This document shows positions 42,634-46,612 of a DNA stretch of 64,000 nucleotides, in pieces. A model generated the notes under the pieces. It was not told the origin of the DNA. It ran no database searches and saw only the letters and a list, made by a program, of their open reading frames with translations. The translations under genes and the position numbers were made by a program. Numbering within the stretch: the stretch's first letter is position 1; every line of letters starts with the position of its first letter. The DNA comes from Escherichia phage Eps7, in the sequence record NC_010583.1, one strand, 5' to 3'.

Positions 42634-42708
42634 TGGCCGAGGTGACAGGATTCGAACCTGCATAAAGGAATTTAGAAGACTCCTGCCTATCCCTTAGACT
42701 ACACCCCG
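42634..42708 (-). tRNA. tRNA-Arg (TCT)
   Basis: manual fold: acceptor CGGGGTG/CACCTCG, anticodon stem GGAGT/ATTCC, loop CTTCTAA, T-arm GCAGGTTCGAATCCTGT, CCA. Confidence 0.6.
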
Positions 42709-43805
42709 TTTAGGTATTTTTAAGAACTCTTATAAAAGCTCTTAAAGATACCCGACGGTAGGTAGGGTCAGCCCCCTCAGATTAAGCTCTGCAGCCCTTC
42801 CGTCAGACAATATCTTCCAGTTTAAGTCAGGGTGACTTTGTGGTTATGTTCTCCGTATGTGAAGAACTCGGTTAGGCTTAGGTCATGACTCCCAGCCTAC
42901 TGCTGCCACTCAACAGGAATTATCGCGAATTACCTGTACTATTGGGCACCATTAGTGACATCTCTCATGTCAGCGTTTCCCACTCTCATATTCACGCGGT
43001 CTGTTAGAATCGCACCTCCGATTTTCGATGCGAAGCTGGATGCCTAGTCTCAGGTTAAACGGGGCACACACTAGGCAGTGATCCCGAGTTCCGAGTTTGG
43101 TTGAGGCCGTCAGGTTTCCTCGTGGTTTAGCTGTTTCGATTCTAACCTAATACTGATCAGGTGGCGTACCTCCTGAACCGTCATAGTATGTACTCCAGCA
43201 GCGAATGCTTATCCGGTATAAGCCCGAGTTATCCGATTCTTTCCAGAAGGAGCAGTAAAGCTCAATGTCAGCCTGTGAGCATCTGGCAGTGTTATCACAT
43301 AAGTCAGTTCGACACCCCACATTTTAGTGCCTGGTAGATCCCGAATGAAGCCCTCAGTCGTTAGACCTCCATCATTCATCAAAGATTTACGCTACCCACT
43401 ATTCGATGGACAATCGCCGCATTGTGGTATACATACGTTTTCACTTGCATCCTAGACGGGTCAGCGTTGAAAGTTATATGGGTTTCTCAAGCCCAACCTT
43501 CAGTCTTCTACCCCTGGGACACGCACCGTATTTCACACTGTGCCTAGCTCCTGTTGAGACCCATCGTTTTGTATAAATTAGAGAAGAGTTTAGAGGAGAG
43601 GTTTCAGACGCCTCATTTTACAAGAAGTCTCGAACCTATATTCGTTACTCTAGTCACTTGGCCGGATATACCGGACTGGACTCGGAACTCTAACAGGTGA
43701 TCATTCTTAACCCACCGACTCTATTCAGTGTCAGAAGCTATCACTAGGTGAATCGCTAAAGCTCACTCAGCGTAATCGGCTCGCTGTTCTCTAATTTATG
43801 AATCT
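42709..43805 (-). other. ~1.1-kb ORF-free, G+C-elevated segment transcribed from an early promoter (candidate large non-coding RNA or foreign insert)
   Basis: no ORF of 60 codons or more in six frames; sampled G+C ~45-52 percent versus ~30-40 percent in flanks; promoter at 43806-43834 points into it. Confidence 0.4.
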
Positions 43806-43842: not shown

Positions 43843-44286
43843 TTAATTAAATTCGCCAGCAACCTGAGCAGCAATGCCACCATCGTAACGACCAGGAAAC
43901 TCTTCCTTAATCGCTTTCATCAGCATACCCTTTGTAATCCCAGGATTCAACTTAACTAATTCTGCAAAGTATTTGCGAATCTCAGAATCAGATAACTGAG
44001 GCGGCAGATACTGTTGTAGCCATTTGTTCAGTATATATTCATACTGAGCAGACTGCAAGCTATAATTATCAAGGTCTTGACCGTGAAGTTTAGCTTTTGT
44101 CTGATTAATGCTTTTCAGTTGAGCTTTTAGATAAGATACAAACTGTTCAGAAGTAATGAAGTCTTTATCAACACGCTGAAGATCTCCGATTATAGTCTGG
44201 TAGCTTTTAGCTACTTCTTTATCAGAACCATCAACCTTAGATTCCTGCAAAGCCCTACGCAAAACATCTAGAATATTCTCTTCCAT
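43843..44286 (-). CDS. GatB/YqeY-domain-like protein
   Basis: 147-aa ORF; recalled resemblance of C-terminal region to YqeY family; TAATG overlap with upstream small ORF. Confidence 0.45.
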   Translation of the reverse strand: MEENILDVLRRALQESKVDGSDKEVAKSYQTIIGDLQRVDKDFITSEQFVSYLKAQLKSINQTKAKLHGQDLDNYSLQSAQYEYILNKWLQQYLPPQLSDSEIRKYFAELVKLNPGITKGMLMKAIKEEFPGRYDGGIAAQVAGEFN

Positions 44287-44524: not shown

Positions 44525-44992
44525 TTAAGTTTTCTTAACCACAGGCTTGTAGAACGTATGGCCTTGAATCTTCGTTGTTTTCTTAAACTTCTTTGTCCAG
44601 TACGGTTTATCTTTACCACTATGGAAGTATAACGCTCCATGTGTTGGATCTTGTGGTAAATCAACGTAGTATATCACTCTAGCTAAATTCTTAGCAACTT
44701 GCCAAGCCTCATCGGTTTTATCAACTTTTGGTCTCTTGGCCACCCAAGAGAACTGGTTAGACTGATATACTACTTTACAGTAAGAATCAGGAAAGTACCA
44801 GAGTTAACACGGTTTTTTAGTAACCTGTGCAACTGCGATCATTCCTTTAGTGCCCTCACCTCGTGCTTCGAAGTAGATATTTTTTGCAATGCAATCAATC
44901 TGCTTTGAGTCGTAGGTCGCATGACTATTGAAGCTATAGGTTAGGGCAGCTATTAAAAGCAAAGCTGCCTTCATTTTATTTACTCCGGCCAA
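44525..44992 (-). CDS. SleB-like cell wall hydrolase with signal peptide, frame interrupted
   Basis: ORFs 44804..44992 (signal peptide, NIYFEARGE) and 44525..44743 (HGALYFHS); intervening frame reads VNSGTFPDSYCKVVYQSNQFSW. Confidence 0.5.
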
Positions 44993-45297
44993 TCGTACTC
45001 AATACGATTAGGGCTTTCTTGATACCCTTCGTCTAAGAGATCATTACGCATGGTCTCTTTAGCTACTGGGTTCGAGGTTACTAGTACCACTTTCTTGGGT
45101 CTCTGACCAAATTCTAGGAGTAAACGAAGAATTTGATAACCTTCCATACCATCTACAGCCAGATCGTTATCCATATAAACGAAATGACCTGTGGTATCGG
45201 TTTTATTCAGAAACTCAATAGCGGCTTCGGGGGTTCGAATGATAATGTCCATTCCATGAAGGTTACGTACATCATCAATCAGAATATGAAAAATCAT
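44980..45297 (-). CDS. receiver (REC/CheY-like) domain protein candidate
   Basis: 105-aa ORF with ILIDD ... YMDNDL ... VVLVTS ... K spacing resembling response-regulator receiver domains. Confidence 0.4.
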   Translation of the reverse strand: MIFHILIDDVRNLHGMDIIIRTPEAAIEFLNKTDTTGHFVYMDNDLAVDGMEGYQILRLLLEFGQRPKKVVLVTSNPVAKETMRNDLLDEGYQESPNRIEYDWPE

Positions 45298-45327
45298 AAT
45301 AGCCTCGTCTCATCAATTTAAAAATAT

Positions 45328-45356
45328 ATTATACAGAAAACTAAACTAATTAGCAA
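45328..45356 (-). promoter_or_regulatory. sigma70-type early promoter
   Basis: ATTATA 45328-45333, TAGCAA 45351-45356, 17-bp spacer. Confidence 0.6.
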
Positions 45357-45736
45357 ATACATTTTTAAATTGAGAGACTAGTAAACCGATAAACAGCCTA
45401 GAGGCGCCACAGGCCATATCTTATGAGCCATGTACCTTTGATCTAGGGTTTGAATCATCAACGAATACTTTGCATCTTTTAGCTTTAGAAGGTTAGAAGT
45501 TTGAGTTCTTTTAACTTTTCAGCTTTCATACTTGAGCGTTGATCTTTGAAGTTGTGTTGGTACTACCAACGACCGTTTTTACAGTTCAGCTTAAGAGGCT
45601 GGTGTAATAAACATAATCTCCAATAGATTATACTTTATAGTATGGTCAGCGGTCTTATTTAACCTCGTATTTCAACCGCTGCTGCGAGGTAAGATGCTTG
45701 GGCTTTCGTCTACCGATTTACTAGTCTTTTAAATTA

Positions 45737-46375
45737 TTACTCTACTTCGATGAAAGTAGAGGCGTTGGACTCAGACAGAACAAAGTCAACGTTAGTTGCA
45801 AAGTCCTGGTATTCTTCGTCGTGTTGCTTGATCAGCTTTTCTAGCTCCAGCGGATCGATCAGGAACGGAGTGTTCTTGAGTTCCAGCAGGTTAAGCTGCA
45901 TCTTAACTTCATCCTCGGAAGTCTTCTTGTCGCGGGTAGCCATGGTATCCTGCAGACGCTCATACTTGGCGTCAAACTGAGCCTTCTGAGTGTTAAACTT
46001 AACAGTAGCAGCATGGAACTGCTTACGCATGTTAGCCAGCAACTGAGCTTTGAGTTCCATAGAACGCTTAGCTTCGATTGCTTCCGCAACAGTCATAGAG
46101 CGAGAACCGATCTCTACAACAGTTTCAGCATTGCTCTTGATCAGCGCAGCTTTCAGCTGATCACGCTGGGACATCATATCCAGCAGAGACTGGAAATCAG
46201 TCTTAATACGAGTAGACAGAGCATCTACTTCGATTGCAGCGCCAACGACAACTTGGTTCTTGTCCTTACCTTCACCAACAGCGATCAAAAGCTGTTGTTC
46301 AGTAGCTTTACGGATTTTAGCTTCCAGAGACTTGATAGTTGCCAGAGCACGAGTTTTAGAGATACGAGTAGTCAT
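45737..46375 (-). CDS. coiled-coil hypothetical protein
   Basis: 212-aa ORF, G+C-richer than neighbours. Confidence 0.55.
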   Translation of the reverse strand: MTTRISKTRALATIKSLEAKIRKATEQQLLIAVGEGKDKNQVVVGAAIEVDALSTRIKTDFQSLLDMMSQRDQLKAALIKSNAETVVEIGSRSMTVAEAIEAKRSMELKAQLLANMRKQFHAATVKFNTQKAQFDAKYERLQDTMATRDKKTSEDEVKMQLNLLELKNTPFLIDPLELEKLIKQHDEEYQDFATNVDFVLSESNASTFIEVE

Positions 46376-46429
46376 TATTTGCTTCCTTATATGAAGTTTG
46401 AGATTTGAATTTGTTTTAAAAACGGTCTA

Positions 46430-46612
46430 TTACAGACCGATTGCCAGCATAGTGCGCAGAACAGTATCAGAACTGTTATCAATATTCGGATTGGCGCGAT
46501 TCAGCACGTTAAAGATTTTCTGGATGCCGGACTGACGCTCAGCCATACGACGCAGACCCAGGTTACGTTTTGCTACTTTACCATTTTTACGGACGTTTTT
46601 AGATACTGGCAT
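46430..46612 (-). CDS. small basic protein
   Basis: 60-aa ORF. Confidence 0.4.
   Translation of the reverse strand: MPVSKNVRKNGKVAKRNLGLRRMAERQSGIQKIFNVLNRANPNIDNSSDTVLRTMLAIGL

Follow-up and report, generated by a model that had tools for sequence, protein, structure and literature searches.

GOLLD and ROOL are the described systems closest to the element reported here, and both are large, multi-pseudoknotted phage RNAs of unassigned function that are often found in or next to transfer RNA (tRNA) islands. We know of no protein partner for ROOL. GOLLD sometimes carries tRNAs in its linker (PMC12286853). The element in question lies in a stretch of 64,000 nucleotides (nt), analysed as a whole and termed the window, from Escherichia phage Eps7 (NC_010583.1), a T5-like phage (Demerecviridae, Epseptimavirus) that is 99% identical over positions 44900-46400 to phages EscoHU1, S114, and their relatives. 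Comparison of sequences indicates that an interval without an ordinary gene, next to a gene for a helical protein of 212 amino acids (aa), encodes on the minus strand a strand-specific RNA fold of ~ 353 nt with two pseudoknots. This RNA is probably a new class with a probable protein partner.

The new RNA resembles GOLLD in its setting, being often located in phage tRNA arrays and carrying complete tRNAs nested within it in three members (L080 3229-3302, L088 3271-3344, and L177 2198-2271). It differs from GOLLD and ROOL in length (~ 285-400 nt compared with about 580-800 nt or more), in possessing an array of heptad repeats, and in having a stand-alone chromosomal locus in Bacillales; unlike ROOL, moreover, it is strictly tied to one protein gene. 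When the whole window and 20 distant viral loci were searched against Rfam at the gathering threshold, only tRNAs and unrelated families were returned, with no GOLLD or ROOL. A permissive search of positions 45250-45800 (E ≤ 10) gave no match to GOLLD, ROOL, or transfer-messenger RNA (tmRNA), and a search of 19 bacterial loci (E ≤ 0.01) gave none to GOLLD or ROOL.

Three further systems share some traits with the new RNA. TRAP reads the (G/U)AG repeats of the trp leader and CsrA reads the GGA repeats of CsrB/RsmZ, and the likeness here, as an analogy of mechanism only, lies in the many short, regularly spaced motifs and in a putative multivalent reading by an oligomeric protein. The motif of the new RNA, however, is AAAG at a period of 7 nt rather than triplets spaced by 2-3 nt or GGA in hairpin loops, the array is held in a pseudoknotted scaffold, and the candidate protein is unrelated to either TRAP or CsrA. 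tmRNA is of similar size and has paired 5′ and 3′ ends, pseudoknots around an unstructured central segment, and a dedicated small protein partner. In the new RNA, by contrast, a terminal helix of 15-21 base pairs (bp) stands in place of an acceptor stem with T-arm and CCA, the central segment, with its period of 7 nt, is not a reading frame, and the partner is not SmpB. Identity as a tmRNA or tRNA was rejected, with ARAGORN finding nothing in the interval (only tRNAs elsewhere in the window) and Rfam finding no tmRNA. Type III toxin-antitoxin systems also couple a repeat RNA to a single protein gene, in phages and in bacteria; ToxI-type repeats are ~ 34-36 nt long and lie upstream of the toxin gene, with a terminator between. 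A ToxI-like antitoxin was rejected as well, the repeats here being of 7 nt, inside a large fold, and downstream of the gene, and the protein giving no ToxN-like, Pfam, or PADLOC match.

The predicted fold and its covariation

A sequence-only reading of this stretch had pointed out an interval free of open reading frames (ORFs) and had allowed that it might hold a terminator together with a small RNA or peptide gene. The interval (45298-45736) was indeed found to contain no ORF of 60 codons or more, the largest being of only 27 aa and 26 aa. In ~ 435 records of T5-like phages it is 90-100% identical and almost always unannotated, and rather than an ordinary gene the relatives show, in two records only, ad hoc calls of ORFs of 34-35 aa. 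Among 28 distinct T5-like sequences, 10.8% of the sites in the interval are polymorphic, compared with 58.5% at codon position 3, 16.5% at position 1, and 5.2% at position 2 of the adjacent gene. Purifying selection on the interval is thus as strong as on the codon positions that determine amino acids.

The architecture was drawn from an alignment of 11 diverse enterobacterial-phage sequences (A4), together with inspection of distant members, and comprises the following features, listed 5′ to 3′ along the minus strand:

45375-45727, minus strand: whole structured RNA, ~ 353 nt between the outer ends of P1 (nhmmer, RNAalifold, and pair counts)
45707-45727, minus strand: closing helix P1, 21 bp, 5′ strand; 21 of 21 positions pair in the window
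45690-45695, minus strand: long-range pseudoknot (LR), 5′ strand AUCUUA; pairs with 45418-45423
45685-45689, minus strand: pseudoknot stem S1, 5′ strand CCUCG; 100% paired in A4
45674-45681, minus strand: pseudoknot stem S2, 5′ strand CAGCGGUU; interleaved with S1 (H-type)
45663-45667, minus strand: S1, 3′ strand CGAGG, followed by a conserved A-rich UUAAAY; pairs with 45685-45689
45647-45654, minus strand: S2, 3′ strand GACCGCUG; pairs with 45674-45681
45552-45646, minus strand: variable region with hairpins HA (45613-45631), HB (45587-45601), and HC (45556-45570)
45462-45551, minus strand: A-rich heptad-repeat array, consensus U-Y-A-A-A-G-N, roughly a dozen units, ~ 90 nt
45397-45454, minus strand: 3′ domain of three helices, opening with UUCAAAC at 45448-45454
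45443-45447 with 45397-45401, minus strand: P3a, helix of the 3′ domain
45434-45437 with 45402-45405, minus strand: P3b, helix of the 3′ domain
45426-45429 with 45412-45415, minus strand: P3c, helix of the 3′ domain
45418-45423, minus strand: LR, 3′ strand UAAGAU, in the P3c hairpin loop; pairs with 45690-45695
45375-45395, minus strand: P1, 3′ strand, from the conserved UG after GGC; pairs with 45707-45727

The 212-aa gene is read from the same strand, and its stop codon is followed after 10 nt by the 5′ end of the RNA; the genes that surround the locus share this orientation. A conserved ACGAA junction lies between P1 and the LR 5′ strand, and GGCUG connects the 3′ domain to the P1 3′ strand. 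P1, both pseudoknots, the variable hairpins, and the 3′ domain together close off the unpaired heptad array. A family profile (nhmmer) matched positions 45386-45716 of the minus strand (E 3e-96) and found no second copy in the window. All elements of a provisional class definition are present at 45375-45727, namely P1, the 5′ H-type pseudoknot, LR to the P3c loop, the heptad array, (U)UCAAAYC-P3-GGCUG, and a gene of the family phrog_1491 on the 5′ side.

Covariation was assessed by RNAalifold, by counting pairs on the written structure, and by anchored shuffle tests, and by these measures every helix of the RNA covaries. Unaided, RNAalifold predicted P1, S1, and P3a-c, with 25 of 40 pairs compensatory. 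When the full structure with both pseudoknots was imposed on A4, 93.5% of the cells paired, compared with 77.5 ± 1.1% after shuffling, and 29 of 49 pairs had changed on both sides (17 ± 2.3 shuffled). The corresponding covariation score of 0.499 (0.203 shuffled) was reached by none of 500 shuffles, and sliding the 3′ partners by 1-3 columns lowered it to 0.147 or less.

The individual helices were then considered. For P1, both sides had changed in 14 of 21 pairs in A4. In 45 diverse loci located by sequence anchors, a duplex was present in all but one, with the partner lying 190-320 nt upstream of the strand that follows GGC; the helix sequences were unrelated, the duplex started at position 1 after GGC in each locus tested, and 32 of the 45 loci reached p ≤ 0.01 against shuffles. 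The long-range pseudoknot changes in A4 from AUCUUA/UAAGAU to AUCUUG/CAAGAU, an A-U to G-C exchange, in 5 of the 11 sequences, and more distant variants include AGCUUAG/CUAAGCU, UCAGUG/CACUGA, UAGAAU/AUUCUA, UUACGC/GCGUAA, and UUAAAUCA/UGAUUUAA. RNAduplex gave LR a median z of only -0.35 with a search space that was too loose, and a contiguous-helix test was used instead, in which the 28 nt after P1 were compared with the interior of P3. Across 44 loci the longest contiguous Watson-Crick helix averaged 5.93 bp, as against 4.62 ± 0.14 bp in 2000 shuffles, with constant offsets.

The S1/S2 pseudoknot was detected in 42 of 43 distinct loci, at a mean of 12.2 bp (9.6 ± 0.5 bp shuffled) and with more than 15 different S2 sequences. 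Two S1 pairs had changed on both sides in A4, and distant members carry other S1 sequences. Hairpin HB of the variable region changes from CAGC/GCUG to CAGA/UCUG, CGGA/UCCG, and others. The 3′ domain, aligned from 45 diverse sequences, gave a covariation score of 0.454 (0.150 shuffled, reached by 0 of 500 shuffles), which is partly circular because perfect P3a pairing had been used to locate the domain. The noncircular evidence for this domain is given by P3b, which was not a selection criterion and is 70.6% paired across the 45 sequences, by the A4 counts, and by the upstream and antisense controls described below.

Counted over the conserved helices, G-U cells number 75 and A-C cells only 10, which indicates that these helices form only in the minus-strand transcript. 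A small RNA of ~ 190 nt on the opposite strand, running from a promoter in the AT-rich palindrome to a terminator-like hairpin at 45555-45571, is very improbable for this reason. In its favor, record AY692264 (T5) annotates a putative plus-strand promoter equivalent to window positions 45318-45384, the terminator-like site is followed on the plus strand by ACCGTTTTTA, and the plus strand also folds well (z -5.9). No plus-strand promoter-like site passed the scan, however, the hairpin at 45555-45571 belongs to the variable region and is absent from other lineages, and the terminators of distant members are on the gene's strand.

The hairpin that had attracted the sequence-only reading, CAGCGGT...ACCGCTG, is real. 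Its arms, CAGCGGT(T) at 45674-45681 and (G)ACCGCTG at 45647-45654 on the minus strand, form 7-8 bp around a loop of ~ 19-21 nt, and they are stem S2 of the H-type pseudoknot, which covaries across the RNA family. The idea that this hairpin is a rho-independent terminator was rejected on two counts: the loop between CAGCGGUU and GACCGCUG is far from the short loop (about 3-8 nt) of such terminators, and there is no U-run, the sequence directly 3′ of the stem on the minus strand being ACCAUACUAUAAAG. Nor did a scan of the interval reveal any minus-strand terminator. A peptide gene is likewise unsupported, as the short ORFs are not conserved and the paired positions show compensatory change. The proposed small RNA gene fared better, in that the covarying fold speaks for an RNA gene, but at 353 nt, with several domains, and filling nearly the whole interval, it is not small. 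The earlier observation is therefore confirmed, while its interpretation is partly supported.

The array was studied in the 104 nt upstream of UUCAAAYC in 114 distinct sequences. Adenine makes up 40% of its bases, and AAAG occurs 5.4 times per 104 nt, compared with 1.0 in shuffles. The spacing between the starts of A-runs has a sharp maximum at 7 nt (492 cases, compared with 120 at 6 nt, 176 at 8 nt, and 77 at 14 nt), and this period rules out a reading frame. The A-runs are usually flanked by UC or UU on the 5′ side and by G on the 3′ side, and RNAalifold predicted no pairs in the array. In T5-like phages 8.9% of its sites are polymorphic, a conservation equal to that of the helices; the variable region is the most polymorphic part of the RNA (18.9% of sites).

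Linkage of the RNA to one protein gene

The first lead was a 71% match to positions 45386-45552 in an unrelated phage, where it lies directly downstream of the homologue of the 212-aa gene. In phage 4MG the RNA is ~ 70% identical over 167 nt and the protein ~ 40% identical. A tblastn search recovered the protein family from 742 phage records, among them those of rV5-like, Pectobacterium, Pseudomonas, Vibrio, Bacillus, Lactococcus, Erwinia jumbo, and Clostridium phages. Phages 7-11, DU_PP_V, Av-05, and 4MG each have an unannotated gap of 340-1060 bp on the 3′ side of the gene, and in three of the four the minus-strand interval of Eps7 matched this gap on the gene's strand by nhmmer, with 7-11 giving no match. 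The homologous loci of phages 7-11 and Av-05 were also seen to lie beside genes of nicotinamide adenine dinucleotide salvage (nicotinamide phosphoribosyltransferase and phosphoribosyl pyrophosphate synthetase).

A viral set of 84 loci was assembled, 80 of them IMG/VR loci retrieved by protein. By iterated nhmmer, 80 of the 84 loci carry the RNA directly 3′ of the gene and in the same orientation, and the remaining four were recognized by eye. For bacteria, the best 80 of 175 protein-encoding loci (one genome per species) were taken; these are mostly from Bacillales (Lysinibacillus, Solibacillus, Paenibacillus, Brevibacillus, and the Bacillus pumilus and B. licheniformis groups), with some Clostridia and metagenome-assembled genomes. 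The signature of the 3′ domain was found downstream on the gene's strand in 68 of these 80 loci; in the controls, it was present upstream in 1 of the 80 and on the antisense strand in 3. The bacterial P1 helices are likewise of unrelated sequence.

The linkage was also approached from the side of the RNA. A search of IMG/VR with the pattern ATCTTRCCYC, 6-32 bases, GRGGTTAAA yielded 80 usable matches. The gene was upstream in all 34 matches that had a 3′ domain and enough flanking sequence, and five more were cut by the ends of their loci. The other 41 matches had neither the gene nor a 3′ domain, which marks them as chance matches, and no RNA without the gene was seen in this search. By these comparisons, the same architecture follows the same gene in T5-like phages, rV5-like phages, many uncultured phages, and the chromosomes of Bacillales, although the paired sequences are completely different.

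The surroundings of the pair vary between these groups. In phages the RNA is often located within tRNA arrays, and tRNAs flank it in rV5-like loci. The site of the variable region holds, in other members, insertions, a T-arm-like hairpin, or a complete tRNA; the nested tRNAs sit between the 5′ pseudoknot domain and the heptad array, and in loci L109 and L115 a T-arm-like hairpin, GGTTCGAATCC, occupies the same position. In Bacillales the gene and RNA stand alone among ordinary cellular genes (amino-acid permease, major facilitator superfamily transporter, and SIMPL), with the protein annotated as hypothetical. A neighborhood of Hydrolase_2 and M14 peptidase genes shared by T5 and Solibacillus was dropped from consideration, since it was not reproduced in Bacillus safensis or Lysinibacillus. 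In Paenibacillus xylaniclasticus (L119 2519-2647), a skipping-rope RNA (RF02924, 54 bits) was observed ~ 80 nt on the 3′ side of the new RNA.

The protein encoded beside the RNA

No functional assignment for the 212-aa protein was obtained from Pfam, NCBIfam, PADLOC, or a sequence search of the PDB, and a BFVD structure search returned only uncharacterized phage proteins. The 'tail fiber protein' label that it carries is without support, and this misannotation is widespread. In AY692264 (T5p083) and in phage Es2 (OR515477, a coding sequence of 714 nt) an ORF on the opposite strand is annotated instead; in Eps7 this plus-strand frame is broken into pieces of 76 aa and 131 aa.

An AlphaFold2 model, built with a 56-sequence alignment, was confident (predicted local distance difference test, pLDDT, 88.9), and shows long helices in antiparallel arrangement and a small sheet whose four strands come from the N terminus, a central β-hairpin, and the C terminus. 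The same fold is found in the DIP1984 family (PDB 3kdq). The window protein gave no match to the NCBIfam model of that family (NF038048), and the only match, by a homologue from locus L100, scored 14.6 bits (E 0.028) against a cut-off of 70 bits; in length, the proteins of phages and Bacillales exceed that family by ~ 60 residues. No function is known for the DIP1984 family itself, so the match says nothing on mechanism. The protein family of the 212-aa gene is near neutral (median isoelectric point 6.1); its N-terminal helix is basic and its C terminus acidic, a charge pattern that neither supports nor excludes RNA binding.

Neighboring genes and other features of the window

The RNA is at ~ 35% of the T5 genome, and in the window it is flanked by the following features:

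45737-46375, minus strand: gene for the 212-aa helical protein (T5.085 homologue, phrog_1491), labelled 'tail fiber protein'
45356-45328, minus strand: T5-type early promoter of the cREC gene, TTGCTA-17-TATAAT, 10 of 12 matches; inside the interval and outside the RNA
44980-45297, minus strand: cREC gene, 105 aa (T5.084 homologue; PF20274, E 3.9e-15), downstream context

The promoter had also been recognized in the sequence-only reading, and it is borne out by the T5-type promoter annotated at the same site in phages S114, AKFV33, and T5. It fits the T5-type early class, with a TTGCTT-like -35 element, a spacer of 17-18 nt, a TATAATA-like -10 element, and a repeated AT-rich context, and the repeat copy to which it belongs (45298-45370) has at least 15 paralogues elsewhere in the window. 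The domains of cREC proteins have been predicted by Aravind and co-workers to process cyclic phosphate ends of RNA or ADP-ribose derivatives (PMC7824862, PMC9503650). In the T5 relative JLBYU43 (L006 679-1500) a gene for an HNH endonuclease takes the position of cREC directly after the RNA and promoter, which marks the junction after the RNA as a site of gene replacement.

Further observations were made on the minus strand of the same region. ARAGORN found 29 tRNA genes between 29.7 and 42.7 kb of the window, and a gene for a YqeY/GatB-like protein (phrog_1460, 'tRNA amidotransferase') lies near the RNA at 43843-44286. On the other side of the locus, a terminator-like hairpin (CGGTCTGTAATAGACCG followed by TTTTT) at 46423-46439 overlaps the end of a 60-aa ORF that lies just before the 212-aa gene; this hairpin may give the gene and RNA unit some insulation from upstream transcription. 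A gene for a SleB-like cell-wall hydrolase (T5p081 homologue, 44525-44992) is split in the Eps7 record: compared with S114, one nt is missing near 44791 and one is inserted at 44813, and the 22 nt that are out of frame lead to a stop codon. The split gene is either a pseudogene or the product of a sequencing error.

A second long noncoding stretch was seen at 42740-43805, where neither strand holds an ORF of 60 codons or more over ~ 1.05 kb. The stretch extends from a T5-type promoter (~ 43832-43805) to tRNA-Arg(tct) at 42634-42708, and its G+C content, judged by eye, is above that of its surroundings. It has no Rfam match at E ≤ 1, is unannotated in relatives, and is covered to at least 80% in only 15 of 460 phage records. 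This stretch may be a second large noncoding RNA.

Discussion

The reading favored here, and judged somewhat probable, is that the interval specifies a new class of structured RNA, a stable product of ~ 353 nt that probably acts as a ribonucleoprotein with the helical protein and offers its array as a multivalent site, with a role in tRNA or translation biology as the weakest element. The RNA would accumulate as a stable, discrete product. In many distant members a rho-independent terminator is located on the gene's strand at 15-25 nt beyond P1 and would set the 3′ end there, while in rV5-like phages a tRNA gene starts ~ 3-15 nt past the end of P1, and the 3′ end would be set by this adjacent tRNA through RNase P cleavage. 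In T5-like phages, where the next promoter follows 18 nt after P1 with neither a terminator nor a tRNA at that place, the 3′ end would arise via processing. The RNA would then probably work with the co-encoded helical protein as a ribonucleoprotein in which the folded clamp, by analogy with other multivalent repeat RNAs, may present the array as a binding site either to an oligomer of that protein or to a host factor. A role in tRNA or translation biology, or in its protection during infection, is suggested because of the location in tRNA arrays, the nested tRNAs, and the neighboring cREC and YqeY-like genes; it is the weakest step.

A more specific version of this reading is held only tentatively, as possible rather than probable. 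It states that the RNA and the 212-aa protein form an unrecognized class of ribonucleoprotein, in which the clamp holds about a dozen UYAAAGN heptads that organize a protein oligomer, and that the complex acts on or shields tRNA or translation in infection. As part of the same tentative proposal, this class would be common to Bacillales chromosomes and to large tRNA-carrying phages (T5-like, rV5-like, Vibrio, Bacillus, Lactococcus, and jumbo phages).

Note, however, that several points weigh against the favored reading. The evidence for a partnership between RNA and protein is genetic linkage alone, and the protein has no recognizable RNA-binding domain, being clearly basic only in its N-terminal 30 residues. 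The role in tRNA or translation biology is suggested by neighborhood only, and the Bacillales loci are without such a neighborhood. In T5-like phages the RNA has neither a terminator after P1 nor a promoter of its own before P1, and there it could stay part of the 3′ untranslated region (UTR) of the gene. Finally, no prior description of the RNA or of the protein's function was found in open-access full text or in Rfam 15, and an earlier account elsewhere is possible.

The foremost competing explanation is that the element is a cis-acting 3′ UTR of the 212-aa gene, which controls the stability or translation of its mRNA, for example as a block to 3′ exonucleases or as an autoregulatory site, rather than a trans-acting RNA. 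The RNA is always on the same strand as the gene and on its 3′ side, and the 10 nt that separate it from the stop codon in T5-like phages contain no promoter, all of which a 3′ UTR would explain. This explanation is nevertheless considered unlikely. In two members (L113 and L118) an intrinsic terminator stands right after the gene and the RNA follows ~ 600 nt further on, and in DU_PP_V and rV5-like phages a hairpin spacer separates the gene from P1. In addition, processing of the tRNAs nested in three members would cut such a UTR, and ~ 350 nt with two pseudoknots and a conserved array far exceed the needs of known 3′ stabilizers.

Less probable again is a sponge or decoy, whose heptad array would titrate a host RNA-binding protein or nuclease, the adjacent protein being accessory or unrelated. 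An array with a conserved motif and period, a partner protein without obvious RNA-binding features, and phage surroundings rich in genes for tRNA and RNA repair are all consistent with such a role. Strict co-inheritance with one protein family, from Bacillales to enterobacterial phages, is however hard to explain in this way, and one host target common to such different hosts is not evident.

The two remaining explanations are scarcely credible. That the interval is a plain spacer, holding a terminator hairpin for the upstream gene, the next promoter, and possibly a small peptide gene, as the sequence-only reading had it, accords with the presence of hairpin and promoter and with the 34-35-aa ORFs called in two database records, but is contradicted by the ~ 20-nt loop without a U-run, the lack of a minus-strand terminator and of conservation in the short ORFs, selection like that on codon positions 1 and 2, and the RNA covariation. 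T5 nicks are located at GCGC-type sites, and an element acting as DNA (an origin of replication, a site for nicking or packaging, or an array bound by protein) could account for the short direct repeats, the inverted repeat at the ends, and GGCGCC at 45402-45407, whereas the G-U/A-C asymmetry, the pseudoknotted long-range pairs, the fixed orientation to the gene, and the downstream terminators are signatures of RNA, and the GCGC motif is confined to T5-like members.

Taken as a new class with a probable protein partner, the RNA adds to the few large RNAs of unassigned function described from bacteria and phages. T5 is among the founding model phages, and yet hundreds of deposited genomes leave this interval blank or fill it with ad hoc ORFs; the analysis also corrects a 'tail fiber' annotation that is spreading through phage databases. 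A heptad array held in a pseudoknotted clamp is an unusual design, and it could bring to light a new way in which RNA and protein recognize each other multivalently. Unlike GOLLD and ROOL, the RNA has a candidate protein partner and can be studied in a simple setting, T5 on E. coli K-12. If the more specific, tentative version of the reading is true, GOLLD and ROOL would be joined by a third kind of RNA from phage tRNA islands, the first to come with a dedicated protein partner and a genetically tractable host phage.

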